Shown: piece after piece, positions 33,129 to 62,790 of the stretch
Numbering within the stretch: the stretch's first letter is position 1
Layout: the number at the start of each line of letters is the position of its first letter
DNA from: Kiritimatiellia bacterium
GTDB taxonomy: Bacteria > Verrucomicrobiota > Kiritimatiellia > CAIVKH01
Direction: 5' to 3'
Assembly: GCA_035327665.1 (NCBI GenBank)
Contig: DAOLCW010000006.1
Coordinates: 165 to 64,164, forward strand
Length of the DNA: 64,000 nt
Position numbers and translations under genes: made by a program
The notes under the pieces: generated by a model
Told to the model about the DNA's origin: nothing
Seen by the model: only the letters and a program-made list of their open reading frames with translations
The model's database searches: none

Positions 33129-33249
33129 GTGTCCAATCCTGCCTGCCTGAGAACGCTTTTCAAGGGGCCCGGCGGAATGTCGATCCCTGATTGCCCGGAC
33201 ACCGTGACCGTACCCGGCGTCTACGAATGGCGATACTGGCGGTGACTGC

Positions 33250-34181: not shown

Positions 34182-37100
34182 TCACTCCGGCAATGCCGTT
34201 TCGGCCTGCAGGCGCAGGAATTGCATTTGTTGCTGAACGGGAATAGACGCTTTCCACAATTCGCGTTGTTGTGCATCCGTTTGGCCCGTGAAGATGTTTT
34301 CAATCCCATGGACGGTCCAGTCGTCATTAACCGCTGTCGCCTTGGCAGGATCGAGGTAAACATTCACAGCGCGCGGATTCTTATAGTAGAGCATGATCAG
34401 CTTCATCGTGCCGTTTTCCGCCTCAATCGAACTGCTAAACAGATCAGCGGTGGCACAAGCCTCCATCGCATCGAGTCCGGCGGCAAATTTCATAAGGTTG
34501 GGTATTCCGTCTCCCATTGGAGAATCTTTAGCTCCGCGTAGATTTGGATCGGGGATGGATTCTGCCCACTCCGAAAAGGTCGTCGTTAGTTCGGCCGAGT
34601 CATATGAAAAACGAAGTCGCATGTGGGCCTTGGGCCCGGTAAGTGGCAGGCGCGCCTCCCAAACCTGATAGTCATCCGTCTCTTCAGCCTCCAGGTGATG
34701 CCGCTCAATGCCGGCTTGGCGCCAGAGCGGCGACACCAGTGATCCCGACCATTCCGGCAGGATAAACACATCAACTGCCTGCTTTGATTTCCTATAGCGT
34801 AGGATCAGATAATTGCCTTCCGATCGACTCACGAACAGGTCATCAGCTTTATGCGCTTCGGTCGGGGACAGGCCGACTGCATATTTGGCTAGGTTCGGAA
34901 TCTGATCGTCCATCGGACTGTCATAAGGCCCCCTTTGGGTTGAATCTACGATTTGCCTCGCCCACCTCTCGTAAGCCGTCAGATCGCTTTGATTTGTCAC
35001 CGTCAGGAAGATCGACTTGGTCGATTCACGGTTACCGGCCCTGTCGACACTGTAATAACTCAGTGAATAGATCCCGGGCGTATCATAGGTAATCACCCCC
35101 GCATAGTCGATCCATGTGTTCTGGCCATCATAACTGACCAAGATCTGATCGATCCCACTGGCATCATCCGTAGCGGTGAGATGGATCATGACGCCATCCA
35201 AGTAGGCCCCGCTGGACAATCGGGTTCCTTCAATCGCGTAGGCAGTGACCGGTGCGAGCCAGTCGGTGCGCGCCTCATAAATCACAGAATCGGAGGGCTC
35301 GCTGGCATTGCCCGCCGCATCGATGGCAACCGCGGTAAGCTCGTAATCCCCGTAAATAAGTTTGAGCTCGGAGGTGGTGAACAGGCCATTGGTACCGGTC
35401 ATTGCGGTTGCGATCAGAACCCCGTTGCTGTTGCTTATATAAACCTTCGTGCCGATTTCCGCCGCTCCGGTCAGGACGACGGTTCCGTTGCTTGATACAT
35501 GTAGCTGCAAGGTCGGCGGGGAAGGTGGGGTGAAATCAACCACGACGAAAAAGGTGAAGGGATGCTCGACATTCGCGCCGGTTACGGCATCTTCGCCCGT
35601 AACCGTAACATCCATCGAGTACGATCCATCGGCAGCGTTATCGGCCAAGTCAATGTTTACGCCAAGTCGTAGTCGCCCTCCGGCGGCGATTTGTTCCACC
35701 CCGTCCTCAAACGCGAAAACCAACAGTTCGGTAGCAAGCAAGTCGCCCGCAGCGGTGACCAAATCGCCCGCCATGATGTTCATATTGGTCACGCCATGCG
35801 TGCCGCCAACCTCAAGAATATCGGCTTGGATCAACACATTGCCTCGGCCAGTGAGCATGCCGTATACCGAATGACGCGTGTGCAGGCGGGCCTCAGCATC
35901 CTGCAGTTCTGAGGCGATCAGGGCAAACTGATCGGACGGATGCACGCGTACTCCGTTAACGTTTACCGTCCAGACCGATCCCGCTTTCACATTGCGAATC
36001 GTCACGAGCTGGCAGCGGCTGTCTGGGCCGGTAAACATAGCGTTGGGTATCTCGACCACCACGGCACCGGCATCGCTGTCATAGCCGGCATGGTGCCCGG
36101 CAGAATCATGCACATGTAAATCCATCACAGCGGCGGGATCATGCAGGAGCATAAAACGCAACGCACCGTCCTGGGTCGCGGTATACGTCACCGTGTGCAT
36201 CGTATCGGTGCCAAAATCCTGCTGTAAAAGGTGTCTCGGGATCGAGTCGGCCAATCCGTTCAGCCGCAATTCTGTTGCACTCTGAACCGTGGTGACCCAC
36301 GGCCCGTAGGAAGCCCGTGAAAGCGTGTCCTCTTCCCACAGTTCAAGCATGAGCTCAACATCGAATCCGAAGAGACTGTAGGTTTGCGCGTCCGGAAGCA
36401 GGATCCCGAAAGAAAGCGTTCCCGCATCGCCTGCGTCAAGTTTGATGTTTGGAAACTCCAGCGACAGCACCTTGCGTCCATCGGCGTAAAGATTGATGAG
36501 CGGGCGACCACTCCAGTCCAGCGTTCCATTGTTGGCCAGCGTGATTACTCCGGGGGTTAGCCTCATGCCGCGCTCATCCGGGAGAATCGCATTTGCGATT
36601 TCAAAGGAGAGGACTTCAACCGAGAGAACGGGGTCAATCGGCCGGTGTTCAATCAGGTACTGGATGTGTCCGGAGAAATCGCGCATGAAGGACCAAACCA
36701 CTCCAGCTTCCTGCTGATGGGCGGCGGTGTAGTCTTGGATGTCCCGGAAGAGGATTCTCAGGCCGATGCGCTCGGCCTCCTTCATGGAACTCATCGCCTG
36801 TTTATAGATTTCCATCGCCTCATTGACGGAGCTTTGGACCGAGTTGTTCACATGTCCGGCCATCTCTCCGAGGATGCCCCCACCCATGCCACCGACCATG
36901 CCGAGAGAGTCAAAAATGAATTTGGTCATGCTCAGTTCGGTGTATTCGGCGACCAATTCGGCATGGAACGCGATGTTATCCCACTGCATCTGCAAGTGCT
37001 TATAACTCCGGTAGAGCAGCGCCTTCACTTCACCGAGTTCATGCGCTTCCATAATCGGCGTGTTCCAATAGGGCGATGCGGTTCCCATGGCATACCAGAA

Positions 37101-40100
37101 TACCTGGGCGCGGTCTTCGGCATTTTCAAGCCCCGGAGTGGTCACCGTATTTGGCGTATACGGCGATCCACTGCGTTTCCCAGGATCATAGCTCACCAGG
37201 GTGGCGGTCATGCTGTGCAACTCTTGATAGAGAAGATCTATTGGGAAAATGGCGGAAACCTTGCTTTGCTGGAGGCTCCACAACTGAGATCGCAGGATCA
37301 TTCCCAGTGAGTCAATCGCGGCCAAATACATATCTAGCCCCGCGACTTTTTGTCCGGCGCCAAGGTGCCGCAACAACTGATAATCATTAAGGTCTTCCGG
37401 GAGGTTGTTGTGCATCGCGATGTATTCCATAAGACGACGGTAGTATTCGCGCGAATCAACAGAAGCATATTCGAGCTGTTTGCGAATTTCCTCCGTAGTT
37501 GGCGGCGTAGCATTGTTTAAGGTCGCCTGGGCGAGTCGTCCCAGGTTCTCCGTGAGATTCTCTTGGATCTGCTTCTGCGCGTGGAGGAGATCAACCATCG
37601 CGAGCAATTCCGAGTTCAATTTCACAACCGAATCGCCAACACTGGCAAAGCCAAGAAGATCGATCGATTTCAACGCGTCGTAATAACTCATGTCACCGCC
37701 ACCACTCGGATTGTTCATCTCCTCGCCATACTTGTTGGCGATTTCGCGACGTGCTTGCTCGGTGGCTTTTTCCAACAAAGAGAGCACTTTGTTCTCTTCA
37801 TCGTAGAATTCGGTTATGTCTTTGGCAAATGAGTGGATACCGAACACAAGGTCCTTGATCGAATAGATCACCGAAATCATCTGGTTGACGGTTTCCGTGA
37901 CGATTTGTAATTGGCCGAGATAGGCCATTTCATGAATGATGTCTTCGGTTTCCGAGTAGATTTGCGCAAGGTGCCAGAATTCGTTTTCAACCTTGTTTTC
38001 AAGGGCGCGGATCAAGTCGTCTACCAGATCCAGCAGTTCGGCAATGGTGTGTTCGGTGCGAAATTCGTGGGTAACCGGGGCCTGAATCCATTCACCCTGC
38101 TCCCCGAGCATCATCGGACTGAATGTCTTGATCTGGCTGAGCACCTCGGTGGCGTGCAGATCGCTGCTGAAGGTGAGATTCCAGGTAAACTCCGCAGTTT
38201 CGTTTGGAGCCAGCACGTCAACCGTTCGCGAGGAGCTTGTGGCGGTATCGCTGATCACGGCATCCCGCATCGCGGGAAGTTCTATCTTCACGTTGTACGC
38301 ATTTCCTTGCCCGCTGTTGGTGACGCGGGCGGTGAGCGTACCGCTGCGGTTTCCGGTTTGTTTAAACGAATAACTGATCTGAATGGAGGGTGACGGCTGC
38401 ACGACGAACCCAACGTTCTGCTCATAGGGAATCCGTGCGTTGCCAAAAAGGGTGACGCCTTCAATGCGCGCGGTGTAAGGCGTCCCGCCGGATGTTCCGT
38501 CGGCGAGTGAGGGGTCGTTCACCAGCACCTTCCAAGCCGACCGCCGCGACTGCATGGCCGGAATGGCCTCTGCAGTGATATCGGACTGCTGCTGGATGCG
38601 GAAACGATGAGTCACCTCCACGCCGTTCGCATCATAGATCCGCAGGATACAGCTTTCCACCTGCAACGCCTGATCCGGCATCTGGTTGCGCACGGCGCTT
38701 TCCAGGATGAAGGACTGGCCGGCGGCGAGTACCTTTTGGCTGATCGAAGCCATCAGTCCGGCCTCTTCGGTTCCGTCGATTGCCGCCGCATTTTCCCGAT
38801 CCAAGCCGAGCCAGAGCGGGAGCGTATCCATGCCGACCGGGCAGCGGCGACCCATCCAATCGGTATAAAAGACGTATTCGTACGGTACACCGTTCTGCCT
38901 GTCGAAGGTGTCGGCAAGGCGTATCCGGATGTGATAGTTTGCCTCGAAGCCTTGCAACGTGAAGATGTGGATGATCCCGTCGAGAACCAAGTCTTTTCCG
39001 GCCTGTGCCTGCAGGGCCAGCAATCCGTTCACATCCAGATCCCAATTGATCACGGTGGTGGCGCGCGGAGCCATCATGAGGTGCAGCAGGTTGCCCTCAA
39101 TAAATGTGTTGCGAATGTGGATGTAGGGGGCCAGCTCGCCCTTCAAGACCAGCGCGACACCGATCAGGTACTCATCGCTATCGTTCGAGAAGGAGAACTG
39201 TCCGCGCTGGTTGAAGCGATCAAACTCCGGCACTAGCTCATCCATTTCCGCTGGCACCCCTGCCCCACCGAGAATCAGGGCAAACTCGCGCCCTGGGCGG
39301 TAAAGCCTCAGCGGATTTACCGCATTGCCTTCCAGCACCAGATTCAGACGGGCTTCGCCATAGCTTTCAAGCTCCTGTGAAGCCGTCCTCTGCAGTGTGA
39401 TGCCGAACGGTTCAACCCTCACAACAATGTCGTGTGTTTCGGTTTCTCCAGTTACGAAGAAGCTTCCTTCCAAGCCACTGTAGGGATAGGCGCTGCCGAT
39501 CAGTACGTTGTAGGCGCAACGGCCTGGTGGCAGATTCATCATTACCGTTCCCTTCGCGACGGTGGTGGTTCCAGTGCGCTCCACACCTCCGGAGCGGAAC
39601 AGGATGCGCTGTCCAGGCAGCGGATTCTCAAATTGATCCACCAGGCGGCAAAGGACATAATATTCGTGGGCGGGCGATTTCAACCGCAGCTCCAGCGGCT
39701 GTTCGGCACGATAGCCTTCGCCGGATTCGGCCGTGAGCTTCATCGGATACGTCGCTCCGCTTACCGATGATCTGAAGGTTTCCAGTTCGAGGCGGGCCAC
39801 CGCCGCCTGCCCGGGGGCAATATTTCCAAGTTTGCTGGGCGTGATGACGATCCATGGGTAATTGGTGCATACCAGCTCAACGTTGGTCAGCACCTCATCG
39901 GTATGGTTCGTAACCACCACATCGATGAGCACCTTGCGTTCGGCGCCAACGGTCAAACTATCCGTGTACGCCTCTTTCGGAATCGTGTGATCCAACATCG
40001 TCCCGTTAAAGATCAGGGCATCCTGCAACTCGATACCCAGCGTCTTGCGCTCAGTCGCAGAGAAGACGAACCAGGCCGACGTGGTCAGGTTGCTTTCCCC

Positions 40101-43100
40101 GATGCGGCAGGCCATACGGGCTTCAACCAACAGGTGGCCGCAAACCTGCGTGCTTGTGACCGTTCCGCTGAAAATACGGGTCTCGCCATCGGGGATCAAT
40201 CCGGACGGAACAACGGCATCCAGATTCGCCACAACGCCATCCGCACCCATTCCTTCCGGATCGGGTATGAAAGCGACACTCTCGATCTGCACGTCGGCTC
40301 CCACCGCTTCAACGGTCAGGCTGAAGGGCGCCGCTTCGTTCAAATGCCCTGCGATCACCATTGGCGAAACCAGGCTCTCCAGTCCAAACACCATGGCGGT
40401 CTGACTGCTGGAGCGGAAGATCATCCCCAGAAGATCCGCGCCAACCGCCTGCGCGGAGATGCCCAGCTCACCGGCCAGCGCTTTCGTGGCCTGTAGCGTC
40501 ACCTCGAAATTCCCTGACGCATCGGTAATCGCCGGTAGGAAAATCGGCTCGTTGGTACTGACCGGTTCGACACGGACAAACACCGAGCGGGAGCTTTGCC
40601 CCTGTCCCCCAATCGTTGAAACACGACCGGTGATGGCGAAGGCTTCACCCAGAAGAACCCGTTCCGGCGCTGCGCATTCAACCACCAGTTCTTCGACCAG
40701 AACCAGCGACCGGGATGCGGAAACATACGTTTTCCCGTCACCACGCGCCACCGCCTGGACCCCATACTTGCCCGCGTCAATCCCGGCCGTGGGGAGCATT
40801 GCGCTCCACCCGTTATCAAAGGCCCCCGAGACAATCTGCATATCCGTCCCGTTGGCATCGCGCATCACCACGGAGACCGCAACATTCGCGGCCGGCACGC
40901 GCTGCATGGTTTTGGTATCAAGGACATCAATGACAACCTCAACCACATCGCCGGGCAGGCTCACGGTTTTGTCGAGGTCCATGACCACCTTCAGGCCCTG
41001 TTCAATGAGAACCGACGCTTCATAGCTGTTATTGGTTTCATCGCTTTCATCGATTTCATCCAGCGTATCGACTTCGACACGAAGGGTCACCGTATTGCCC
41101 GCCATGGTTTCGTCGGCCACCCAGACCGGATTCCACCAAAACGTTTGTCCCGGAAGCAGCAGCAGATTGAATCGTTCAACCGCAACCGGTTGTTCATCGG
41201 CAAAGAGCCTCGCGTTGAACGGTTTGCTGATCCTTCCGAGGCCTCGATTGGCGATATTGATGCCCAGGCGCGTCTCCACGCCCGCGCTCGCAGCCGGCGG
41301 AACAACAACCTGGCGGACCGTCAGATCGCCCTGGGTGATACTGAAGGTTTTTTTCACAAGCAGCACATTGTCGGAGACATCGGTTTCGTACCAGAGTCGG
41401 CCGGGATCGAGGGACACCTTGATGTCATGGGTCCCCGGCCACGGATCGTTCCATGTCAGCAATGCGGCGGTGAAGTGGCCGGCCGCGATCGGGGCGACCG
41501 CGCGGCGGGCGACCGTCTGCCCGTTGACGGTCATGACCACCTCGGAACCAAACGGCAGGCTCACGGCCGAGTGGTTGAAGATCGAGGCCGTCACCAGCAC
41601 CGGAACACCGGAAGCCAACTGGCCATTTTCCGGTTCGAACGTGAGTTGCTGCAACACCAGGTTGGGCAAGATGAGATTGAGATTGTTTTTGTTGACGGTG
41701 AGCGCCGCGCGATTGTTGTTTTCATTGCTTTCGCGAATATGGCTATGCGGCCAGTCGGCGATCACCTCGACAAGGTGCTCACCCGGCGTCGGCACCCAGG
41801 TAAACGAGACCGTTTCCGTGGCGTTGGTTTCCAGTTGATCCAGCGCGCTGTGGCCAAGGTATATTCCGTCCACATACGCACTGATGCGGAACGGTTTGTC
41901 GGCATTGATGTCGCCCCGGTTTCCGATGTCGGCCAAAACCTGAATCGGTCGACCCCAGTTGACCGGCTCGCCGGGAGCCACACTGAGGCGAACATTTTCA
42001 GCGACCAAATCGGCGAATACCACCTGATCTGCAAAGATCGCCAGGGTATCCACGTTGTTCCATTCGTTTGCTTCATTGACCCGGCTTCCCATATCGTCAA
42101 GGACCACCGTCAGGAACGGCTCAGACATGGAAGCGATATAATCAAAACTGATCGTCCCGGTCTGCCCGGCGGGCAGACCGCCTGTGACCAGCCGGGTATC
42201 AACCAGTTTTTCCCCCGCGTAGAGACTGACATAGAATTTGGCATCCGGCGGCAAGTCTTCGGCCGCGTTGCCGATCCCCACCGAGACGGTCAGCAACTGA
42301 CCATCCAGCACCTCCGCCTGGCCATGCCCGAAGGAGGCGACATAGAGATCGGGACGTGTCTCTTCAACCGTGACCAGCATCTTGTCCTCTTCCATCGCCC
42401 CGTCGTAGTCGGTGACCACCAGCAACACCTTATAGGTTCCCGAATCCGCAAATGTGTAGGACGGGACGGGACCGGCGATCCATTTTCCGCCGGTCTCCTT
42501 GCCGTCGACGTCCAGCCTGCGGTCGTCCATGTACCACTGGTAATTGACGACCACACCGTCCGGATCGTAACTGCGCGAACTGTTGAACCGAACCGGCTTG
42601 CCGAGTTTTACCGTCTGGTCCAAGCCCGCATCGGAAACCGGACGGGCGTTGATGCGGAATTGCCGTGAGGCATTGCCCTCGGTGCGCGTATCCAGGAAAC
42701 GTACTTCCAACGTATAAAGGCCATCCGTCGTTGTATCAAACACCAGTTCAACTGTCTGCGTGCGATAGGAACGCAATTCCTCGACTTGGGCCGTGGCCAC
42801 CAGGGTTTCCCCCCCCTGCGCGTCGATCAGATAAACGCCGATGTCCCCGGACTCGGGACTAACGCCGCGATTATACAACTCAATCCGCACCCCGCCTTCA
42901 TCGCCGGCGATAATCGGGAGCGGGCTGTTATACAGCGGCACCTTGTTTGCAATTGATCCAAGTCCATACTCGATCACACCGAAGCCATCATCGTCACGGT
43001 AATCCTCCCACCAGTGCGTTTGTGCGTATCTTCCCAGAGTCTTATCATCCGCATTGGCCATCAGGGTGTTAAACACGAAGGTCCCGATTTCCAGTTTGCG

Positions 43101-46100
43101 GATTTCGAGTGCGGACTGGTAGTCAATCACATACGTAACCGGCATGCCTACGGGCTGTCCGTTGACGATTTGACCGATACGGTCAACGATGTAGAGGATT
43201 TCGCCATCGCGCCAGAAATTGTTTCCGGAGAGTTGGTGAATAGCGCCGGATCCATCGAGGTGATGCCGCTGAATGCCGCGGATATTGATCGAGACCAGCG
43301 GATCGTTGAGCACCATGCAGACAAACCCGTTGGTGGCGGGAATGGTGAAGGTCATCTGCGGCGCTTCGATCGTCGGCGCCTGCGTCACCTGGAGTTCGTC
43401 CGGGACGATAATGTCCTGTCGCAGTCCGGTATGGAGATTGATCAGATAATCTGGAATTCCATTGTCGTCCCGGTCAATCAGGCTGAACGAATTGTTCGGA
43501 TCAATCTCGTCGGCAAAGAGGAAATCGCCCAGGATAATCTCGGTGTGCACCGCGGTAATGAGCGGATTGAGCTGCACGCCCTTGAACGGCAGATGCACCA
43601 GCTCCGCGGTGAATTCGGTTACTGTGGCATCGAGATTGCATCGCGTAATCCAGTATCCGCGAGCCCATCCGAGTGCGGCAACATCGCCGAACTCAACCGC
43701 CCACTCCTTGGTTTCAACATTTCCCGCGCCAAAGCTGCTGCCGACGATTTCCATTTGGAGCGGGACCCCGCTTTCATTCTCGGTAATCTTGGGCTGGCCG
43801 GATTTGATTCGGAAGTTTTTGGCTTCACCGAAGCCGTGGTTTTCGACAAAGACGCCCAACCGGAACGGGGTGTTGGCCAGAATCTTCTCCGGCAGGTAGT
43901 AGAACAGCTCCAGCAAGGGCTGCGGATGAACCGTGATCTCTTCGCTGTGGGTGTTGAACTCCCTGAACTGCCCCGCCTGCGAATAGGTGGCTGCCGCTTC
44001 AACATAATATTTCTTTCCGGCCGGGTCTTCGCCGCCGAGACCTACGCCCGGCACCAGGATCCAGCTCGCGGTAAACTCGGTTCCCCCGGCCAGGGTCTGT
44101 GACCCGTCCGCCGCACTCAGCCCGCCGCTCAAACTGGGCTGTACAATATAGAATGCGCTGGTCACGTCGCGGTTCGCGGCATCGAACACGCGCGGAGCCA
44201 CACTGAAGCCGACGAGGTCGTCGCTGAGCCCGTTGCGGAAAGTCAGCACCGCCTCGAAGCCTTCGCGTTCAAGCGTGGCTTCCTGTGGAATCTGCAGTTT
44301 CACCGCCACAGAAACCCTGTCGGAATCCTCATCCTGAAGTTTAGGCAGTCCATCAAATTCCTGCTCCCCATCTCCAAAGTCTGGCATTTTCACCTTTTCA
44401 TCCTGGAAGCCGGGAACGCGAATCGTCGCGGTACGATCCGCGGCCGGATTGTAGATCGGTACCTGATTGGTGACCCCGAAATCGGCAAATTCACCGGTCT
44501 TTTGATCAAGTGCCCGATACGTTCCGGTCAGCTTGAACCTGCTGCCGCCTTTCAAGTCTTCATACGTGCCGGGGGCAATATAATACGCAAGCTGGACTGA
44601 TTCGCCGGCCTCGATGATGCCAATATCACCGCCCCCCGCCAGTGAAAGGCTGTTGATCAATTTGGGGTCACCGATCACCTCCACGCGTACATTGCGCAAC
44701 GCAAGATCGCCCTGATTTACAAAGATCAGGCGGTCGCTGTAGCCCTGCTCAACCGTCTGGGCAATCGTTGCCCACGGCGGCAGGGAAACGATCGACGGCT
44801 TGTTGAGGTTGTCGATGCGCAGGGAGATGTCCAGAATGATCTCATACCGGTCTTCGATGGTGATTGGCGTAACCGACCACGTATAGGTGATCGGCGTAGC
44901 GGTAAGTGTTTCGCTGATCAGAACCGGCAGGCTGGACGGCATGATCTCCACCTCGCCCTTCACCGATTCATGGCCGCTGCTGTTGATCGAATAGGTGTAG
45001 GCGCCGGTCGGGATGTCTTCAAACATGACCCGCCCCGCCGCATCGGTGCGGTCAATAAACACCTCATAGCGTTGACCGGCGGTGGAACCGTCCGGATTGA
45101 TGACCGGCGTGGTTTCCTTGCTGATTAGACGAACCTCGGCACGTTCGATCAGGCGGCCGGCATCGTTGCCAACGGTAAAACTGACACCGCCCCGCGTTGC
45201 GCTGGTCAACTCGATCTCGATGCCCATTCGGAAGGAGATGTTGTTTTCGTCGGACAGCGTGATGTAGTCGCGGTAGAGTCCCAACCCGGTGGCCGCATAA
45301 GGCTGGACAACCACTTCGAGTTCGAGGGCGGCCCCCGGCTCAAGATTCCGGATCCCCGAATAGTTCACGGTGACCCACGGCAGGTTCGGCGCTCCACTGA
45401 CCGTAAAGTTCTTCAGCGTGCCCAGCCCTCGGTTGGTGGCGGTAACCCGCCGGAACAGGGTATCGCCGGGGTTCATTCCGAGCTTGAGCATGCTTTCGCT
45501 GAAGCGGATCGACGGCCCGCTGTCGAGCAGCGTCACGTTCAGGTCATACGTCCGCTCGATACCCTCGTTACAACTGAACGACAGCCGGAATTGCCCCGCA
45601 TCATCGGCCACTTCCTCTGCTTCAAGCACGACGGTTAGCTGAACCGCCTGACCCGCGCTCAGCACCGAGGGCACGCTTGAAACAAGACGCGCCTCGATCC
45701 CGTTCGCGGCCACCACCTCGCTCAAGTCCACCCGCACATTGGTCAGCGCGCGGATCGAACTGTTTCTCAGGGTGACGGTTTTCGAGTGGGTATAGTTTTT
45801 CGGCATCGTGATATTCGCGCCGGGCGAGTCAAAGCCTGCGTTGAGAATCTCGAAATTGCAGGTGCCGGAGGCCGCCACCACGGAACTGATCAGATAGCCG
45901 GTAACCGTGTACATGCCGGACTGACCGCGCAGGGTGCGGTGCAGATAGGTGAATTCGCCGGTCGGACTTGTTTTCACTTTCGCGGTGGTGACATCGCTGG
46001 CCATATTCGCCAATGCGGCCAGCGCCGGGTTGGCCATGTCTCCAAAGCCGTCCTCCCCCTCAAAGATGGCGAGCAGAAGGGTCTCATCGGCAATGGGAAG

Positions 46101-49100
46101 GCCTTGCAGATCCAGAACGCGTCCGCTTATGACAAGTCGTTCTCCGGCCAGGACCCGCGGGGAACTGGGTTCCATGTGAATCGTGCAGTCTTGAATCACC
46201 ATAAACGGCAGCGTCTGCGAGCGCGAAAGCGCACCGTCGTTATAGGTGATACGAACACTGTAGTTGCCCGTTTCATTAAACGACGCCAGCGGCAATTCGA
46301 GATTGAACCGCGACGCAAGCAGGTCGTAGAGCATGGGCACGTCATCATACAAGGTCTCGGGATCCGGGTAATAAGGCAGCTCGCCAGGCTGGATCACCAC
46401 CCCCGGTGTATAAATCAACGAAAGGGTCATCGTTTGTCCGGCGCTGGTATCCAGCCAGGCCTTCGGCGCCGAGGCATAGCTCGCCCGGGCGCTGACACGG
46501 CAGGTTTCCGAAGAGATATAAATGGGAATCCCGAACACCTCGTCAGCTTCACGATCCAGTTTTGCATCCACAATCAGGCCGTCTTGAATGGAAAGTTGAA
46601 TCGCCGCCGTCGCAATATTGTTTGCCTCATTCTCTTCGGGAATCACATTTTCCGGGTCCACCTGGACCGCGAGGGTATGCGACACCGTCGGGTCGACATC
46701 CACGTTCTTCCACATCAAGCCGGTTTGCACCGTTTCATAACCCCGGATCGAACCGATTTCCAGCTTGCTGACCTGCCTGCCGTTGACCAGCAGGATCACC
46801 GAGCTGCGAGCATAACTGGAGACTAGCGAAAGGTTCGAAAGATTAAAGGTCACGATCAACGAATCCCCATATTTTACCGGTCCGCCGTGTTGGGTAAACC
46901 AGGAGACATTGCCGACGGTCAGATCGCTATACAAGATCCGGATCTCTTTCGTGGTGTGGCGTTGTTCATTGTTGGAATAGTCGGATTCTGCAATCGTCTG
47001 ATTCTCGTTGACGACCACACGGATTTCATGAACCCCCTCCGTAGCCAACACCTGGAAGGCGACGGTTTTCGACGCGCCGGGAGCCAGATGGCGTATCTCG
47101 CGGGTACCGACCCGGCGTCCGTTCACATAGAAATCAACCGGGGCGGTTTGAAGCAGCCCGACCGCAGAAAGGTTTTTCACGGTCGCGCTCATATCGATCC
47201 AGCTTCCGTGCGCCATTTCCTCCTCATCGGGTTGAACCGTCAGTTCTAGCTGCAAATCCGGGTGTTCGACGGTCAGGTCGCCCAGCTCCAGGGTATAGCT
47301 GTTGTTCGTCTCATCGCTCTCCACAATCAGCGAAACCGGGCCATCCACCATGGCGGTCAGGGTATTGGTGCCATTCACCGGCATGACATCAAACGTAGTG
47401 GTCAGCGTTCCCGAGGCGGCCAGATCCGGCAGCGGTTTGCGGGAGATCATCTTGCCATTCTGATACAGCGCAACAAAGATTTTTTCGGCATCCGCCGTTC
47501 CGGCATTTTGCACGGTAAGGGTCGCTTTCAGCGCCTCTTGACTGGTGATGACCGCCGGCACGGGGCAAGTCATCTCCGCAATCAGCAGATCGGGAAAATG
47601 AATCTGCTGGAATGTCATGTGAACCTGGTTGTCGTTGTTCACTTCCGAGAGTTCGTTCACCGCGTTGATCAGATCGTCGGCCACCACTTTTACCGTATGC
47701 AGCCCCTTGAGCGCCGTCCACCGGAAGGTCACGTCCACCGCGTCGCCGGCCGCGATCCGGTCATGAACAATCACATAGCCATGATAAACGCCGCTGATGT
47801 AATAGGTGGCAAAGAACGCATTCCGGGTCGGGCCGTTCCCTTGGTTGCGGATTGTGGCGATAATGGTAATTTCGTCCCCCTCTTCCGGCTCCCCGGGCAT
47901 CCAGGTGATCTTTTCAACGATCAAATCGGCACGGGTATCGGCCACGGTCACCAGGATCGAATCCGTCGAAGAAACACCCCGGTCATCCGTAACCGTCAAC
48001 GTCACGGTATGGACCCCGACCGCTTCATAGCGGTGAACCACATTCATGCCGCGCTTGGTCTTGCCGTCGCCTAAGGTCCAGAGATATTCCATGATGCGGC
48101 CATCCGCATCGCTGCTGCCCGAACCGTCAAAAGCCAGTTCCTCATACCAGTCCACTGAGCGGTCGCTACCGGCCATGGCCACCGGGGGATGGTTTACCAG
48201 CACTTCACGCGAGAGCTCGTTGTCACCGGGAGTCGGATCCAACGCCGGCGCAACGACCACCGCCACCGCACGGATGGTCTGCGACCCGCCGTTTTGGGGA
48301 ATCCACGGACATCTCACATCCGCCGAGGCCAGTCCATTCAACCAGAGATGCTGGATGCCGACTTGCTCTTCGGCCCCACCATTCGAAACATAAAAGCGAA
48401 CCGTAACCTGCGCACGCGCCGGTCCCCGGTTGAGCACCCGGGCAACGATATGGCCCAGCCGGCCCTGCGCCGGCGTACGTGGATCGAATACGAGCGACTG
48501 GATGGTCAGGTCGGCTCGCGTGGTTGTTGCGAGTTCACTGATGTCGGACAACGGTGATTCATTGCCGGCCAGATCCACCGCGGAAACGGCGAATTGATAG
48601 GCTTGATCGCTCTGCAGCGACTCAACGGTGAAGGACTCGGAGGAGGAGGAACCGGCCGGTTGCCATCCGCTTTCACCGGACACCCGCCGGTATATCCGGT
48701 AGTGCGCCAAGTCGCTCTCGCCATTGGCCGACCAGCTCAACTGGATGGAACTGCCGGTCTGCGGGTCGGTTGCGCTCAATCCCTGCGGTGCGGCGGGTGC
48801 CTCGGTGTCGCGGACGAGGATAAAGGTGGTTTCCAGGCTGTTATTCGAACGGTCTTCCGCCCGCGCCCGGATTTCAATCTCTCCATCCGGCAGCCCGTCG
48901 GGATTCCACGTTTGCTGGATCCTCCAGTGCCTCTGTTCGGCCTGCCAAAGGGCCTGCGGCGTGCCGCTGCATTCGAGCCAGTTCGCATTGCCAACCAGGC
49001 GATACCAGAAGGCTCCGGTGGCAATCGCGTCATTATCCTTGGCCAGCAAGGCCAGGTTGATGGCTCCGCTATGGCGCGACCACGCCTGCGGCATCACGCC

Positions 49101-52100
49101 CACCAGGATCGGAGCGGTGGTATCGCTCAACGTCGTCACCGCCGGGCTGTCGGATGGAGCGCCGAATTGACCAAGCATATCCTCGGCCTCCACACGGTAC
49201 GCGTAAAGCACGTCCGGTTGCAGGTTCATATCCACATACAGCGTGGAGGTCAGGCGTTCCTTCAGAACCGTGAACGCCCCGCCGTTGACCTGGCGCGAAA
49301 GGCGGTAGCCGACCAGATCGGAATCGCCCGGCGAATTCCAGGCCACCGCCAGCGCCAGCTCGCGGCGTTGAATCGTGACCGCGCCCACCGATCCCGGCGG
49401 TTGGTGATCCACCAGGTAGGTCCGCACCAGCGAACTGCTCAGTCCCGCCGCGTCCCAGGCGGTCAGGCGAATCAGATAACGCCCGGTCGGCAGCTCGGTC
49501 ACATCCCAATCGCAGGACATGGCCGTCCCCTCGCAAAGGTTGGTCCAGATCAGGTCCGACAACGCATACGAACCGGCGGGCCTTTCGGTGAACTCATAGC
49601 GAACCAAGGTCACGCCCACATTGTCCCGGATGTCGGCCAACAAGTGGATGATCGCATTGTGCGCACTGTTTTCCGCCGGAGACAGACTGCGGATTTCCGG
49701 CGGCGACTGATCACCATTCGGCGTGACCGTCACCACATTGCTGTCGTCACTCACATTTCCGGCCACATCATAAGCCCGAACCACATAACTGTAGGACATA
49801 CCGGGCGACAACGGCCTGTCCGTATAGCTCGACTGCGAGTAAATGGTAGCGTTAAGCTGGACAAATGGCCCTTCCGGGGATGCTGCGCGGAAGATGCGAC
49901 AGAACGAATAGTCACTTTCGGCCGGCTTCGTCCAGTTCAGGACCGCACCGAACTCAATCGGTTGAGCGGAGAGAGTCACGGCCGCAGGCGGCGTATTATC
50001 CACCGTCACCCTGTGCGTGACCTGCTGAATATTTCCTTTCGTGTCCTCTGCGCTGAACCGGACCGCATACACGCCGTCGGCCAGCACCGTCGTATCCCAA
50101 CTGCCGGTCCCGGCCGCACCCTCATGCAGGGTGGTCCAGAAAAGTTCGTCCAGGGAAGATTCAATCTGATATCGGCTGATGCCGGAGATGTCGGTTGCCG
50201 CGACATGGAGCGCGAACACGCCCCGGATACGTTGTCCATTGCCCGGAACCAGACTGGTGAAGGTCGGAGGCAAGGTGTCCTGAATCGGGTCTAGGGAGAT
50301 TTGCACCACATTGTTCGTGCGGTTGATCTCGGAGATCTTGCCGTGCCGGTCGGCGACGATTTCGACCGAATGGGGTCCGGGGGTCGCCGTCCACTCGAGG
50401 ACGAGCGATTCGGTCCGGTTCCCAAACGGTCCACGGATGCGGTCCGAGGCCACCCAGGCGCCATCCACGTTCAAGTGCACATCCACATCCCGCGCTGTTG
50501 CGCCGCCGAGGTTGGTGACGTCAAAGAAGAACCGGACCTTTTCGCCCTCATTGATGGATTCCGGCAGCCAGCTCGCATGGGTCACCGCAATGTCCGGCAC
50601 AAGGATCTCCGCCAGCGTTTCACTCAGGCTGTTGTTGTCCTCGCGGCTCTCTTGGACCTGGTTCAGGTAATCCGCCCGCACCTCGATCGTATGGGTGCCG
50701 GGCACCGCCGTCCAGATCCGTTCCACCCAGGCATACTGGCCTTTCGGCAACGTGGAGGAGGAAATCCACTGGTTGCCGATAAAGTTCCCGTTCACATAGA
50801 ATCCTACATAGATACCCTGCAACAAATCGCCGCCACCGATGTTGTCGATGCGGGCGCGCAAACGCACCGCTGCGCCTTCCATCGGGGCAAGCGACGGCAG
50901 TTCAAGCTGCGTCACTGTCACATCCGGCCGGTCGAAGGTGTAAATGGTGAAGGACCGGCGGGCCTCCGATTCGCCATCACTGACCACGACGTCCATCGTA
51001 TACTCACCGGGGATCTGTGCCCCCGTCGGCGTCCACGTGAAATAGCCCGATGAGGTCATTGCCGCACCCGCAGGCACATTCCCTTCAAGGCGATAAGTCA
51101 GACTCTGCTGGAGGTCGCCGGCGGAAATATCCGGATCACTCCCAACCGCCTGGAACGACAGGGCCGTTTCCCCCTGAATGGTTCGGTCGGGAATCGCGTT
51201 CAGGGTCGGCGGCCGATTCACTTCCAGCACATCAATCGTCACCGTCTGGATGGCATGTCCCAGTCCGTCATCAAGCCGTACGCCGAAGGTATAACTCCCC
51301 GGACCCTGGCGCTCGCTCGGCGTCCAGGAAAAGAGACCGCTTTGCGGATGAATTGCCGCCCCGGCCGGCGCGGCCGTCAGCGAGAAGACCAACGGGTTGC
51401 CGGGGACGCCATCGGCACCCTGCGCGGGAAACTCAAAGAGAACCAACTCGTTGATTTCCGTCGGCAGGTCGGGCAGCGTGAGGGTGGGTGGCGTCCCATG
51501 GACCACAAACGTCCAGACGTTCGTCGGTTCCATCGGCACCCCATAGTTATCCCGGGCGCCTGAAACCGTCAGATCGTATTCGCCGTCGTCGGCCGGAACC
51601 AAGGTCAGTGGATCATAGCGATACGCGTCTTGTGTAGTATAAATGTTCAGCCACTGGCCCCCTTGGGTTGAAAGCACCCGCTCGGCGCTATCACTCCGAC
51701 GCCGCATCACCGCCAGCGGGATCTCTCCGGTGTCCATCGTACGGTCAAAGACGAGGGTCACCACTTGGGTATCGGTCGCGGGAACCGGGCTGTCAAATGT
51801 CCGCCTTACTTCCCGCACCGCCGGGCTCATGTCGTAGACCTGATATTCGGCCTGCACCAGCACCACCGCCGGATCGGCCCGCGTCAAGGTCCAGTTCCAG
51901 GTGGACTGGTTCGAAGCATGCGTCCCGTTGCGGGTAAACCTTTGGAAGACATAACGCTGATCGTCCTTGAGAATCATCGCCGGCGCGACGAAGGTCGCCG
52001 TCTGCCCGTTGGTCCAGGTCCCGGCCCCGGGAATCATCGCCAAACCGGGCGGCAGGGTCGCCGTCGTGACCTCATGCTCCTTGACGTCTTCCTCGAACAC

Positions 52101-55100
52101 CGCCACCAAATGCCGTGAAGCAATGACCGAAAAGGTGTAAGACGGTGAAGTGGACACAACCTCGTCCGTGGCCCCTTCGCGCCACTCCACAAAACTGCAG
52201 TACGCCGCCGGATTGGCGGTCAGCGTGCCGGCGATCCCGTAGGACCACAACCCCGCTCCGCTGACCGTGCCGAGACCCGCAGGCGATATCGTCACCGTCA
52301 CCGCGAACTGGGTCCGTTCGAACTCCGCCACGAGTGTTCCGCTGCCCTGTACCGCGAACGAATGGCTCGGTGAATAACTCACCACCTGACCGTTGAATAG
52401 CCACCTCCGGAAAACATACTTTTCCGGATCCCCGACCGTGGCCATCGCCGAAAAATACTCGTTTCCATAAAGCGAGGCGCCCGGCGTGACACTCCCGGCA
52501 TCCGGCGGCTGCACCGCCGTTTCGATCGTGTAGAGCGTCATCTCGCTGGGAAGCTCGGGAGCCTGCACCACCCGGAAGGTTGCGGTGCGCCCGGCCCCCG
52601 CGACCACGATCCACGCCATCCGCTCGGCGCTGGTATCGTTCAAATCCAGACTGTAGGTCAACGTCCCGCTGCCTGTTCCCGACGCGCCGCCGGTGATCGT
52701 GAGCCATGGCGCCGTCTTCGTGGCGGTCCAGCCGTGGTTGCTCTCGACCTCGAGCGCGTTTCCGGCGGAGGCTGCGCCGACGTGCTCGCGGTAGTGCGGC
52801 GCCACCGAGAGAAACGCCGGTGCGCCAGCCTGCCGGATCGCCACCGTGCGACTCAGCCCGCCTCCCGCAATCGTCACCACGCCATCGCGCGCATCCAGCG
52901 ACGGGTTCGGCTGGACCCGGTAATGCACAGTACCCGCTCCGGAACCGGTCGTATCACCGGTCAGTTCCAACCAGGCCGCACTACTCGACGCAGTCCACTC
53001 CACGTTGCCGCATACTTCGATAACGTGTCCCCCCGAGGCGGAGGCGTCGTGATCACCTTGCTCGGGGACAACCACTAACAAGGCGCGCTGCTCGATCTGG
53101 AAGACGCGCACCGCCCCCGCGCCGGCGATCACCGTGATCGTTCCACTGCGCGGCGCGCCGAAGGTGTTTGCGGCCAGGCTGAACCGAACGACCCCGTCGC
53201 CGACGCCGCTCGCATTCCCGTCAATCGTGATCCATCCGGAACTGGCGGTTGCCGTCCATGTCATGTTTCCGGTCACGCGCAGCGATTGCCCGGTCACGGC
53301 GGCGTTGCCAAAGGCGCGGTGGCTTTCCGCCAGTGCGATCGTCCGGGGCGTGTCGCGGTGATACGGATAGCTCTGCCCGGCATCAATCGTCCAGACATCC
53401 ACAAAATTCCAGCCGCTAAAGGTCCCCGCCTGTTGCAGCGCTTCGGTCGCCAGTCCCGTGCCGCCGCCCGAGCTGCTCTCCTGCCCCGAGGTGCCCGTGT
53501 CCCAGAAACAATCCGTGATGTTTCCGGTGTGGCGGTAGCCAATTAATCCACCCAACCCGGACGACCCGCTCACCGCGCCAAAACTGAAGCCGCGATCCAC
53601 GTTGCCCCAGTACCCCCCACTACCCCCCGCATACCCCACCAGCCCGCCGACATTGTAACCACCCCCGACTGCGGCCCCGCTGTAGCAGTCCGCGATCGTT
53701 CCCTGACGATGCCAACCGACCAGCCCGCCCGCCGTTTCGGTAAACGCCCGCACCCGCCCCAGACTGTAGCACTGGGACAGGATCGGCGAACTGAAGGTAT
53801 AGCCTACCAGGCCGCCCACATATCGCCCGCCGCCGACCTCCATGATCGCCGAGACGCGACGGACTTGCGCCGTTTGCAGATCGCCGATCACGCCACCGAT
53901 GTTGTCCGTCTGCCCGCGAACCGTGGCCGTCACGGCGACGTCCTCCACCAGTCCCGCACCGGTCATCTGACCGGCCAGCGCGCCGAGCGTGGACAGCCCG
54001 TGAACGTGCGCGTTTTCCAGACGCAACGAGCGCACGGTCGCGGCCCCGAGGTAGCCGAAGAGTCCCTGCCCGGCGGAAACCGGACGGTTGATCGTCAGAT
54101 TGCGGAGCGCGAACCCGGCCCCGTCCAAGGTGCCCGTGAAACGCGCTTCGGACGTCCCCACCGGCAGCCAGCCCTGCCCGGCATTCCAGATCGTGGTGTC
54201 CGCCAGGTCGATGTCCTGCGCCAGCCGATAGTGCGCCCCGGGCGCCAGCCGCATCGCGTTCAGTTCCGAGGCATTGTGCAGCACATAAGGACTGAGCTCG
54301 GTGCCCTGACCTTGCAGGTCTTCCAGCGCAACCGCATCGGGCGGGACATAACCCCTGAAATCCTGAAACGCCGGGTAGCCCTCGCCCCCATCTATCCGCC
54401 AGACCGTGTCAAAATTGAAGAAGGCGTAGTTCTCGCGCGTCCACATTGCCGTCGTCGTGCGACCCTGTGCGCCGCTCCCTCCCGCGCTGGTCTCCCGTCC
54501 TGAGGTCTCGGTATCCCAGAAGCTGTCCGTGACGTTGCCGGTGTGATGGGTGCCAATCAGACCGCCAACACTGGATCCACCACTGACTGCGCCGACACTG
54601 AAGCAGCGATGCATATTGCCCCAGTATCCCGAATTGCCACCCCAGCCCACCAGTCCGCCGACATTCGCTGGACCCGTAACGTCCGCGCCGCTGTAGCAGT
54701 CCGCAAGCGTCCCGGAACGATGATAACCGGAAAGCCCACCGATCGTGTTTCCGGTGCCCGCCACCTGACCGAACGCGGCGCTGTGGCGGACCTGAACTCC
54801 GCCATCCGTGTATCCGACCAACCCGCCCACATGGGAGACACCCTGCACGCGGACGTCCGCGGTCGCTCGATGGATTGTGCCTCCGTTCACATACCCCACC
54901 AATCCGCCGATTTCGCTGTTGTGCCCGCGGACGAGTCCTGCGACCGACACGTTATCGATCGTGCTGGTGTCCGCGCGTCCAGCGAGGATACCGACATAGC
55001 GGTTGCCATAGACCGTCACCCCCTCCAGCCGGAGGTCGCGCACGGTTGCGTTCTGCAGATAACCAAAGTATCCCTGATAATCCGACTCGGGCCGGTTGAT

Positions 55101-58100
55101 CGTCAGGTTGCGGATCGCGTAGCCCCCGCCATCGAAGGTGCCGGTGAAGGGGGCGCTCGACGTCCCGATCGGAATCCAGCCGGAGCCCGCGTTCCAGATC
55201 GTTGAATCCGAAAGGTCGAGGTCGCCTCCGAGGCGGTAGTGGGCGGCAAGGTTCTGGCCCATCGCCCGCAACGCCGCCGGCGTCGTGATTAGATAGGGGT
55301 CTTCGACCGTGCCGGCGCCGTCCAAATCGCCCAGCGCCACCTCGGGCGGCTCCACATATCCCGCGATGCGCTGCAGCGTCGGATAGTCAATGCCTTCCTC
55401 GATCCGCCAGATGCTCTGGAAGTTGAAGACCCCATAGGTGGCCTGCTGCTTCATCTGCTCGGTGGTGCGGGCCGCTCCGCCCGCACTAACGCTCAAACCC
55501 GACACCATTTCATCCCAGAACCCGTCCGCCTCGGTGCTGCCGTAGTTTCGCCCGACATACCCGCCCACATTACTGTTGCCCGAGACGGGTCCGGCGCTGT
55601 AGCCGCGCCGCAGGCGGCTGTAGTAGAGATAGCCGACCAGCCCGCCCACATCGCTCGCACCGGTAACCGCCGCCCGGCTGTAACAGTCGCTGACGATCTG
55701 ACCATACTGATACCCCACCACGCCCCCGACCTGATTGCGCCCCGTCACCGACCCCCGTGCAGAACTCTGGATCAGCGAACCGGCGCTACTCGACATATAA
55801 CCAACCAGCCCGCCCACCCGGTCACGCCCCCGCACCGAGGCACCCACCGATGAGGCAAACAGCCTTCCTCCATTGAGCCGTCCCACCACTCCGCCCCCGT
55901 CATCCACGGTATTCACCTGCCCAACCCCGTCAATTCGCGCCAGAGCGCAATTCTCCGCCCACCCCACCAGCGCCGCCGTGTAGTGCTGCCCCTGCACAGA
56001 CGCCTGCTCAAAGACCACCCCCTCGATCACGGCATCCTGCGCATAGGCGAACAACCCCTGGTAATCCGTCGTGGACCGGTTGATCGCGAGATTGCGCAGA
56101 ATGAATCCGGCGCCATTAAACCGACCCCGAAAGCGGTCCGCCGCCGCAGACCCGCCGACCGGCGTCCAACCCCGACCACCATCCCAGGCGACCGTGGCGG
56201 TCAGGTCGATATTCGCCGCCAACTGGTAGTGCGCATGCAGGCCGTGACGCATGGCATCCAGTTCCTGAACATTGGTGATCAGGTACGGCGAAGCAGCCGT
56301 GCCCTCCCCTTGCAGCGCAGCGGTCGTCAGATTCTGCCGTCTGGCCAAAGAACTCAAGTCGTTCAACTCCGGGTAGCCCGCGCCCTCTTCGATCGACCAG
56401 AGCGTGAAGAAATTCCAATTCCGGAACGTGACGCGCTGGCGGAGCATAGCGCTCGGCAAACCGGCTCCGGCCGGACTCGTCTCCCTGCCCGAGGTACCCG
56501 TGTCCCAGTAGCAGTCAGCTTCCGAACCCCCGTAATTGCGCCCCACGAAACCCCCGATATCCGATCCCGTGCCAGTCACCAGCCCTGAACTGTAGCTCCG
56601 CCGCACCGGGGCATAGTACAAATACCCAATCAACCCGCCGACGATGCTGCCGCCCTCGACCTCCGCCCAACTGAAGCAATCGGAAACCATGGCATAATTG
56701 GCTTGCACTCCGACCAGACCTCCAACGGAGGACGTACCGCGGACCGCGCCTTTGGCGGCGCTGTGATAGAGCGTCACCGCGGATCCATCAAGACGCCCTG
56801 CGACGCCTCCGATCTCAGTTGATCCCTGGACGGTCGCATCAACCATCACCCCGTGCAGCGCGCTGCTGCCCCCCGCATGTCCGATTGCGCCGCCGGTGTA
56901 GGTGCCGCCCTGCACCGCACCCGTGACCGTCACCCGGTCTACCAGGCTGGCCCCCGTGGTCGCGCCCGCCAGCGCTCCCACGTAGGCCGCTCCCTGCACG
57001 GCGGCATCCTCCAGTGCCAGATGCTGCACAACCGCCCCGTTCAAAACGCCGAACAGTCCCTGGTAGTTGGTGCCCGGGCGCGCAATGGTCAGCCCCTGAA
57101 TCGCATGCCCATTCCCGTTCAGCCGACCATGGAAAGCGTTTGCGGAGGTCCCGACCGGAACCCACCCCGCGCCCTCGTTCCAGGGGGCGATACCAAGGTC
57201 GATATCCTCGACCAACCGGAAATGCTGCTCCCAGAACACCGAGCCCAGAAACTCCCGCAGGTTGTTCAACTGCGCCGGCGTCGCGATCTGCCAGGGATTT
57301 TCTTCCCGCCCCGTCCCATCCAGAAACAGGTGCACCGCGCCACGCGGCACATCGGCCCGACCCGCAGTGTCGCGCACCGTGACCTCGAACTTCAGAAACC
57401 GCCCCGCGTCCGCCTCAGTCTGCACCCAGGTCGCGCCGGTGGCTCCGGGGATCAGATCGAAGGGACCGTTCGCGGCCAGCCCCCGGTACCACTGGAAGGT
57501 CGTGCCCAACTCGGTGTCGCCGGCATCGCCCGGATGGTAGACGTAGTGTCCGGTGAGCGTGTTGCCGACACCATCGCGTCCCGTCACCCGCACCGGATGG
57601 GCCCACGGCGCTACGAGGGACACCCCGACGATGTGCCCGGACTCGCCCGCGAGCAGGTACGGCTCGCTGTACTGGCCCTCGTGACCAATACCCCAGGTCG
57701 TCGCGAAATCCCAGCCCACGTAGGTCGACTGCAGCACCATTTGCTCCGCCGGCTTGCCCCCGTGGCCGCCGTCGCCGGCGCTCGTGGTCCGACCCGAGGT
57801 CGTCACGTTCCAGTAGGAGCGCTCGATCCGCGTGCCCGCCGTGGCCGACCCGACCAGCCCGCCTACGTTGTTCGCGCCACTGACTGCCCCGACGCTGTAG
57901 CACTCAATCACGCGACCGCCGGCCAGGCTCCCGACAAGCCCACCGATCAGCCCCGTGCCCTGTGCCGCTCCACGCGCGTAGCTCTGCTCGACCCAGGCCC
58001 GGTCTCCGGCCATCTCGCCAACCAGCCCGCCCACGCGCTGCGCCCCCGTAGCCGATCCCAACGCGAGCGAGCGCAACACCTGGCTGTTCTCGTGGTACCC

Positions 58101-62058: not shown

Positions 62059-62078
62059 CTTGTTTGAAAGCCGGGAAA

Positions 62079-62756: not shown

Positions 62757-62790
62757 CCGTCTAAACCCACCAATTGAAAGGAGCCATTGT

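Follow-up and report, generated by a model that had tools for sequence, protein, structure and literature searches.

The window analysed here, a 64,000-nucleotide stretch of contig DAOLCW010000006.1 from a Kiritimatiellia bacterium, contains a single open reading frame (ORF; 34182..60263, minus strand) that, according to the window's ORF list, encodes a giant protein of 8,693 amino acids (aa). The protein begins with a Sec-type signal peptide (MNARWIKLAGLFILFGTGVGIYPVCAQ, read off the sequence), and its matches to Pfam outside one block in the C-terminal part, the subject of this work, are to beta families only: LamG (Laminin_G_3), GLUG/M26_N (Peptidase_M26_N) repeats, BACON, He_PIG, many CARDB, PKD, fn3, a CarboxypepD_reg-like domain and Big_6, with an OmpL47-type beta domain identified by NCBIfam near the C-terminus. 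The block is a predicted helical domain of 490 aa (aa 7395-7884; 36612..38081, minus strand, as are all parts of the protein given below), with limits that include conserved flanks. Directly upstream of it lies a beta-sandwich domain (aa 7307-7369; 38157..38345), for which the NPCBM_assoc/CARDB-like matches are weak, that is, below or merely at the Pfam gathering threshold; downstream, an Ig-like Big_6 domain (aa 8253-8325; 35289..35507) is followed by the OmpL47-type beta domain.

Giant surface proteins of the Planctomycetes-Verrucomicrobia-Chlamydiae (PVC) bacteria are numerous, almost entirely uncharacterised and consist mostly of generic Ig-like filler, so that the best hints at what they do come from those rare elements that are conserved and non-repetitive. 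Fibrillar and giant bacterial adhesins are built of tandem beta-sandwich 'stalk' domains such as CARDB, PKD, fn3, Big and He_PIG (PMC9210967), and giant PVC proteins have been described as well (bioRxiv 10.1101/2023.11.21.568195). The ORF analysed here has the combination of a secretion signal and a long array of beta-sandwich stalk domains by which fibrillar adhesin-like proteins are recognised, and it resembles both of these groups in its signal peptide, its thousands of Ig-like residues and its PVC host; as in fibrillar adhesins, a variable N-terminal part (~2,900 aa) is mounted on a conserved chain. In contrast to both groups as described, it carries in the stalk a conserved 490-aa domain, predicted to be a helical bundle, that lies outside all Pfam stalk and adhesive families. 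No cell-wall or membrane anchor was recognised in the window protein. The literature treats giant PVC proteins in general terms, and nothing was found in it on this helical domain.

The first-pass annotation of the window had singled out an alpha-helical block of about 470 aa at 36630-38050 in an otherwise all-beta protein, and both the character and the extent of the block are borne out by the model. The AlphaFold2 prediction, made from an eight-sequence alignment, is 73% helix and 4.5% strand (mean predicted local distance difference test score (pLDDT) 73.9; predicted template modelling score (pTM) 0.69), helical and neither beta nor disordered. The predicted helices cover aa 7407-7873 (36645..38045), nearly the interval first proposed; the two peptides quoted to mark it out are found at aa 7405 and 7843 (window 36735..38051). 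In residue numbers counted within aa 7395-7884, as used from here on, the helices are 13-92, 99-122, 145-188, 210-224, 231-240, 249-272, 281-297, 351-398 and 403-479, and the model includes a small four-stranded sheet. By comparison, a sample of 511 aa from the most conserved region of the protein, within the core (aa 5320-5830), was modelled with 37 strands and no helix of at least four residues, only 3-residue helical turns, and its fold matches are to pilins, integrin legs and transglutaminase beta barrels. The block is thus confirmed as a discrete alpha-helical domain of ~490 aa, unlike its beta surroundings, and, as judged from this one modelled core sample, the only helical element found in the ~5,500-aa conserved core.

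The composition of the block was described correctly in part. Compared with the rest of the protein, it is enriched in Glu (8.9 vs 5.3%), Leu (11.8 vs 8.5%), Lys (4.1 vs 1.4%), Met (4.6 vs 1.6%), Gln (5.0 vs 3.6%) and Tyr (5.0 vs 3.3%), but not in Ala (8.2 vs 9.4%), which had been included in the list. Gly and Pro together, said to be almost missing, are halved rather than nearly absent (8.7 vs 15.2%), with Gly concentrated in two loops. The suggested heptad-like spacing turns out to be alpha-helical periodicity in a more general sense. The power of the hydrophobic signal at periods of 3.4-3.8 is 46 in the block and 15.6 elsewhere (Mann-Whitney p = 2.5e-6), and the two longest helices are significantly amphipathic, with none of 500 shuffles reaching the observed periodicity. 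The best periods are 3.44/3.67 for the first helix and 3.64 for the last one, in which the power is 2.0 at a period of 3.50 and 98 at 3.60; a continuous heptad (3.5-residue) repeat does not run through the long helices, and only helix 145-188 comes near a period of 3.5.

The encoding DNA has, as noticed at first, a locally lower guanine-cytosine (GC) content: 0.511 in the block, against 0.57 in flanks of 1,000 aa and 0.603 for the remainder of the gene, which places the block among the lowest-GC 439-codon windows of the gene (413 tested). This dip, together with the fact that the block is the sole helical element found in the conserved core, is what speaks for the proposal that a horizontally acquired module was set into a beta-rich gene. 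However, it is codon positions 1 and 2 that account for the drop (GC at position 2, 0.335 vs 0.43), and the GC content predicted from the block's amino acids, with codons used as in the third of the gene around it, is 0.523, close to that observed. At position 3, GC is 0.64 against an expected 0.665, and the residual of -0.025 is the same throughout the C-terminal part of the gene, from aa 7200 on. Synonymous sites likewise agree with the adjacent segments, both in GC at four-fold sites (0.721 in the block, 0.769 and 0.694 next to it) and in coding skew (-0.135 in the block, -0.06 and -0.02 next to it). The windowed comparison therefore retains a difference in GC, but not one in codon usage at synonymous sites: the dip is a product of amino-acid composition and gives no sign of a separate origin. 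For annotation, the lesson is that a local GC dip within a gene can stem purely from the amino acids it encodes.

The homologues lead to the same conclusion on the origin of the block. Searched exhaustively with HMMER, a set of 1.84 billion representative proteins contained only 10 homologues of the block, most of them inside giant proteins (P0004, 6,981 aa; P0009, 6,229 aa; P0008, 3,948 aa; P0010, 2,308 aa; P0007, 1,932 aa; P0005, 1,604 aa). They come from Tichowtungia sp., a Kiritimatiellia metagenome-assembled genome (MAG), a Planctomycetota MAG, and Planctomycetes and Phycisphaeraceae bacteria, and all are annotated as 'hypothetical' or 'PKD domain-containing'. In BLASTP comparisons, aa 2926-8553 of the window protein align with aa 1352-6980 of P0004 at 51% identity over 5,664 columns, L007 aligns with aa 4289-8685 at 62%, and collinear matches that extend across the block reach from aa 3101 to 8430 in P0009 and from aa 4900 to 8413 in P0008. 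An inserted module would be expected to be missing from otherwise collinear homologues and to differ from its flanks in synonymous-site or codon composition; the block is present at the collinear position in the four homologues compared, P0004, P0008, P0009 and L007, and its synonymous sites are those of its neighbourhood. The compositional and homology boundary of the gene is located near aa 2926 instead, so that the lineage-specific part of the protein is the N-terminal ~2,900 aa. Given the compositional cause of the dip and the shared position in collinear homologues of two phyla, the acquisition of the block as a separate module is unsupported; this reading is already largely refuted, and we consider it highly improbable. 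The block is rather an ancestral, vertically co-inherited part of a ~5,500-aa collinear core, which is common to a rare type of giant secreted protein built of beta sandwiches and found in Kiritimatiellia and Planctomycetota.

Other ways of searching add little to this set. A word-indexed search for homologues of the block turned up P0001 and P0002 alone and missed the 38%-identical P0004, which the exhaustive search had retrieved; the same kind of search with an eight-sequence profile yielded no further homologues, and locus scans of genomes and metagenomes produced only two loci and one duplicate. The family alignments comprise eight sequences (the AlphaFold2 input) or nine (for invariant positions), and synonymous sites are saturated at the 50-64% amino-acid identity involved.

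No known family could be linked to the block. No Pfam-A family exceeds the threshold on the block or on any of the eight members; the best sub-threshold matches on the block are to SEO_N (E 0.009-0.011; 15 bits, cutoff 27) and Tweety (E 0.04), and none of the weakly matching families is present in more than one of the eight members. NCBIfam gave nothing on the block. Sequence and profile searches of the PDB gave only compositional matches to designed and other coiled coils, over residues about 30-230, and no Foldseek match in the PDB or the BFVD viral fold library is better than E 0.02 and a template modelling (TM) score of 0.24, the lists being of generic long-helix proteins such as ABC-transporter transmembrane domains, axonemal proteins and tape-measure proteins. 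The remote-homology search of the block alone that had been recommended at the outset thus ended, with profiles and with folds, without a significant relative. Since no relative was detectable in Pfam, NCBIfam, PDB sequences and folds or viral folds, the block appears to represent a domain family that is new and rare, in proteins of an already known type. Defined as a family, the domain would make such giant proteins recognisable and comparable, and at 490 aa it is a compact, expressible target for structural, binding, membrane or mechanical work.

The conservation of the domain is very uneven. The block as a whole is less conserved than the core average (38% vs 51% identity to P0004; 50% vs 64% to L007), and within it the N-terminal half evolves much faster than the C-terminal half (28% vs 44% to P0004; 37% vs 58.5% to L007). 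Nevertheless, across nine sequences of which the most distant share only 20-25% identity, 27 positions are invariant, and these are confined to residues 2-34 and 205-484: P2, V3, F7, K30 and E34; Y205, G248, L270, K274, A277, F279, P280, D282, L284, W329 and G333; G350, Q366, N369 and E437; and H455, W463, D468, H472, Y475, D483 and P484.

From the N-terminus, the domain starts with a predicted helix of 80 residues (13-92; 37806..38045), with the invariant K30 and E34 near its start and a charge-poor distal part (61-75). The following variable 'head' segment (86-146; 37644..37826) is indel-prone, modelled with low confidence and the fastest-evolving part, with an identity of 17% to P0004 (aa 7426-7525) and 29% to L007 (aa 7489-7588). 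A 44-residue helix (145-188; 37518..37649), the sole long helix with a roughly 3.5-residue period, leads to a conserved 'base' subdomain of mixed alpha/beta structure (196-349; 37035..37496), with short helices, four strands, the motifs SAIFPxDLLYxEL and WYAxG...W.P, and the eleven invariant residues from Y205 to G333. The domain ends with a long predicted helical hairpin (36645..37031), in which helix 351-398 is joined by a 4-residue turn to helix 403-479. In the folded hairpin, we infer, the QWDN motif in the first of these two helices, which includes the invariant Q366 and N369, faces the invariant E437. A conserved polar stripe, HQQEAGVVWSFMRDFSGHIQY (36657..36719), in which H455, W463, D468, H472 and Y475 are the invariant residues, runs close to the end of the last helix.

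The tip of the hairpin (376-420; 36822..36956) is charge-depleted (charged fraction 0.09) and rich in small residues. Two segments of the alignment are depleted of charge: residues 61-75 and, with a charged fraction of 0.09 against a median of 0.20, residues 369-420; the latter encloses the 4-residue turn that joins the last two helices. Charges at the tip number from 1 to 7 per 45 aa across the family, 5 per 45 aa in the window protein, and three of the nine members (P0005, P0008 and P0010) have entirely charge-free runs of 36-41 aa. At the turn itself, a Gly/Met-rich motif (LGMVGGMGGGILGEMA; 36858..36905) is common to P0001 and P0002 only and is not kept in L007 or the remoter members; the striking motif GMVGGMGGGILG is restricted to the closest relatives. 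The conservation of the domain clearly falls into two parts, a conserved base and a fast-evolving tip.

We tentatively propose, at somewhat less than even odds, that the domain is a rigid helical arm that branches off the beta-sandwich fibre, with a conserved, polar-layered base and a variable tip that makes contacts. Going by helix lengths and conservation, it would be an antiparallel helical bundle about 11-12 nm long, in which the 80-residue first helix runs outward and the 77-residue last helix returns. Both chain ends would then be at the base, so that the domain would be a side arm and not an in-line spacer. The base would be made up of the first 35 residues and the C-terminal half, with nearly all the invariant residues and the small beta-sheet, and would be fixed to the neighbouring beta domains. 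In terms of height, K30/E34 would be level with H455/E458, and Q366/N369 with E437, whereas the two charge-poor segments (taken here as residues 61-90 and 369-420) and the indel-prone residues 86-146 would gather at the distal end; this internal consistency of layers and segments supports the deduced topology. The variable, low-charge, Gly/Ala/Met-rich tip would make the contacts, likely with a hydrophobic or partner surface, be it another copy of the protein, the cell envelope or a target cell, and the conserved, buried polar layers would most likely set the register of the helices rather than serve catalysis.

Several points weigh against such an arm. The topology was deduced from helix lengths and not read from the model coordinates, pLDDT is <50 at residues 86-107, 117-146 and 397-407, which are those of the proposed head, and the alignment is only 8-9 sequences deep. 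The tip is only mildly hydrophobic (Kyte-Doolittle 0.07-0.64, against 1.61 for the tongue of ClyA); its small residues by the hairpin turn may permit tight helix packing and nothing more, and the head may evolve fast because the constraint on it is relaxed, not because it recognises a partner. Finally, no conserved partner genes flank the giant gene in the window, L007 and P0004 loci.

In overall shape, the proposed arm has parallels in the trypanosome ISG75/VSG proteins and Borrelia OspC, which are extracellular antiparallel helical bundles with a variable distal end, as predicted for the block. ISG75 is the third-best fold match to the block (E 0.12, TM 0.20-0.24) and OspC appears in the profile search (E 0.29), both non-significant; the organisms and the architecture are unrelated, and the resemblance is one of shape only.

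The long helices also invite comparison with coiled-coil stalks, which had been named among the possible functions. The block could be an inter-chain oligomerisation or stalk module that bundles chains or spaces distal domains, in the manner of tetrabrachion, the streptococcal M protein or the stalks of trimeric autotransporters, with which it shares very long amphipathic helices in a cell-surface protein. Such a role would fit the significant amphipathic periodicity of the 77-80-residue helices and the designed and other coiled-coil proteins drawn by the PDB profile search, and inter-chain pairing is compatible with a prediction made for a monomer only. Those PDB matches, however, are compositional and limited to residues about 30-230, and the heptad is not continuous, as the near-absence of power at 3.50 in the last helix illustrates. 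The helices are broken up by loops, the four-stranded sheet and the 4-residue hairpin turn; the (monomer) prediction is of an intrachain fold that turns back on itself, with the pTM given above; and the invariant polar residues and the WYAxG beta hairpin are atypical for simple stalks. In its canonical sense, a coiled-coil stalk does not describe this domain, and we regard an inter-chain coiled-coil module as unlikely.

The membrane-interacting or toxin-like role suggested in the first-pass annotation has evidence on both sides: the conserved charge-poor, Gly/Ala-rich tip is indeed there, but a significant likeness to pore-forming toxins is not. What would be envisaged is an alpha-helical module of the ClyA/Hbl/Ahl type, whose bundle opens so that the uncharged Gly/Ala-rich tip enters a membrane. 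With the ClyA family (ClyA/HlyE, AhlB, MakA, Hbl/Nhe, YaxAB) the block shares the elongated bundle of long helices, arranged in hairpins, and the uncharged Gly/Ala-rich end: charge is depleted at the tip family-wide, down to the charge-free runs of three members, and the G/A/S/M/L composition recalls the Gly/Ala-rich tongue of the ClyA sequence with which it was compared. Moreover, MakA and AhlB are among the fold matches, and a role as surface weapons has been proposed for giant PVC proteins (PMC12057145; bioRxiv 10.1101/2023.11.21.568195). However, MakA (7p3r; E 0.58, TM 0.15-0.21) and AhlB (6grj; E 0.73, TM 0.13-0.18) rank only 36th and 45th, neither of them significant; hhalign gives the family profile a probability of 0.4% against Escherichia coli ClyA/HlyE; and the toxin families of Pfam, HlyE, Hbl and Nhe among them, are unmatched in all eight members. 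Membership in the ClyA family was accordingly rejected, by sequence and profile as well as by fold. The tip is also far less hydrophobic than the 27-aa ClyA tongue, by the hydropathy values given above, and bears five charges in the window protein, and the Gly-rich motif is not conserved even in L007. The block further differs from these toxins in being embedded in a giant chain, not free, and in its additional conserved alpha/beta base. A pore-forming or membrane-inserting module is, on balance, improbable.

The conserved polar residues could alternatively form an enzymatic, metal or ligand site, built from K30, E34, D282, Q366, N369, E437, H455, D468, H472 and Y475. Nine to ten invariant polar or aromatic residues do persist at 20-25% overall identity, and by inspection of the sequence E458, D468, H472 and Y475 would fall on one stripe of the last helix. 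Yet no enzyme family or fold was matched, and in the model the invariants would be spread over roughly 60 Å in at least two layers, which suits the setting of register better; we view a catalytic or binding site as quite unlikely.

A mechanical role has been considered by analogy: the bundle might unfold at low force, in principle like talin or spectrin, and act as an extension reserve or force fuse in a stiff Ig-like chain. The domain is the only helical one found in a long beta-sandwich chain, and tension would unzip it should its two termini both lie at the base. This analogy is purely one from general knowledge, with no sequence or fold likeness to talin or spectrin, and we deem a mechanical element very unlikely. 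In a broader form that joins two of these ideas, the arm would be an active device instead of passive structure, with either a membrane-active (pore-forming or fusogenic), uncharged Gly/Ala/Met-rich tip that enters the membrane of another cell or a bundle that force unzips to release about 170 nm of chain. This has, in our estimate, a low probability; if true, it would add to the giant surface proteins of PVC bacteria a domain of a new functional class, whose fold is unrelated to those of the known alpha-pore-formers. The reading that we favour, in the tentative terms used above, is the rigid arm with a contact-making tip.

A fragment of the domain is also found outside giant proteins. The homologue P0002 is a stand-alone ORF of 306 aa (L001, 7391-8314; also L002-L006), present in six Logan metagenome samples from one study. 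Of the giant protein, only aa 7376-7656 and 7771-7808 are preserved in it, at 61% identity, with an internal deletion and an altered C-terminus. About 1 kb of non-coding DNA precedes it, and it is located between unrelated housekeeping genes, Ank/Sel1 on one side and RadC/RlmN on the other. P0002 could be what is left of a giant gene since lost, or a fragment that has been domesticated.

Other parts of the giant protein have peculiarities of their own. The most conserved stretch, aa 5326-5726 (window 43086-44288), opens with the motif QEATLEREGF and is 74-81% identical to P0004, 82-90% to L007 and about 50% to P0008. Neither Pfam nor the PDB sequences gave a match to it; it is predicted to be all-beta, a series of tandem sandwiches, and its fold matches are only generic Ig-like ones. 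An internal duplication of aa ~5335-5700 and ~7100-7400, which share ends of the form '...P(L/V)(I)T..H(T/E)...', was considered and dropped, as BLASTP did not support it. The N-terminal part, aa 1-2925 (window 51489-60263), comprises LamG, four or five GLUG/M26_N repeat units and BACON repeats, has a GC content of 0.62-0.68 (0.55-0.60 in the conserved core) and is not common to P0004, which carries beta-helix-like repeats in its place; this pattern reads as that of a swappable head on a conserved chain. At the other end, aa ~8430-8693 (window 34185-34976) consist of two tandem copies of a ~130-aa unit, each with F.RL at its end, of which P0003 has three. The unit contains a Ca-binding-like motif, DSPM(D/G)D(Q/G)IPNL.K(Y/F)A.GL, has no Pfam match and may be an anchoring or dockerin/TSP3-like module. 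The C-terminus of the homologue P0010 has a PEP-CTERM-like motif (VPEPATLALMAAGALALLARRRR, read off the sequence).

The giant gene as a whole stands out from its genomic surroundings. In the flanking housekeeping genes (window 1-32800 and 62100-64000), the strand asymmetry at four-fold sites is extreme whatever the orientation of the gene: these sites are C in 165 cases and G in 3 in release factor 1 (RF1; plus strand), and G in 187 and C in 16 in HflX (minus strand). Calculated for the plus strand, the skew in six of these genes is -0.74 to -0.96, and the all-site GC skew is -0.2 to -0.43; the asymmetry is seen, for example, at 26296-27387, 62139-62756 and 62791-63780 on the plus strand and at 29094-30428, 30403-31398 and 31811-32767 on the minus strand. 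To our knowledge, such values are far past those usual in bacteria; in the related genome L011, the skew is about 0.2-0.6. By contrast, the skew is near zero in all genes between HicB (32.9 kb) and PemK (61.6 kb), these two and each segment of the giant gene included, which delimits an island-like segment at window ~32900-62150. At its edges are a tRNA-Glu/tRNA-Asn pair (61983-62153, minus strand) and a truncated tyrosine-recombinase ORF (33401-33841), and it contains a HicB-like antitoxin (32910-33341), an XRE helix-turn-helix gene (60499-60882) and a PemK/MazF-like toxin with a small upstream ORF (61238-61818).

In the genome of P0004, the orthologous giant gene has the skew of its neighbours, about +0.5. 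The near-zero skew of the island among strongly skewed host genes, set beside this ortholog, makes the whole giant gene look imported. The flanking RF1 is 100% identical to the copy in a Kiritimatiellia MAG, with the next best only 69% identical; a Kiritimatiellia MAG matches parts of the giant protein at 77-92% identity, although other RF1 proteins are at most 69% identical (next best). The pattern suggests a recent, island-borne horizontal transfer of the whole giant gene in the window genome, and the foreign unit looks to be the giant gene, not the helical block. Among the neighbouring genes, the one at 31811-32767 (minus strand) encodes a DksA/TraR-type C4 zinc-finger protein with a Lys/Ala/Pro-rich, histone-H1-like N-terminal tail of ~120 aa. 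At 1628-7549 (plus strand), a series of genes for probable secreted proteins, which have LamG and right-handed beta-helix domains, shows skews of -0.26 to -0.64, between those of the housekeeping genes and those of the island.

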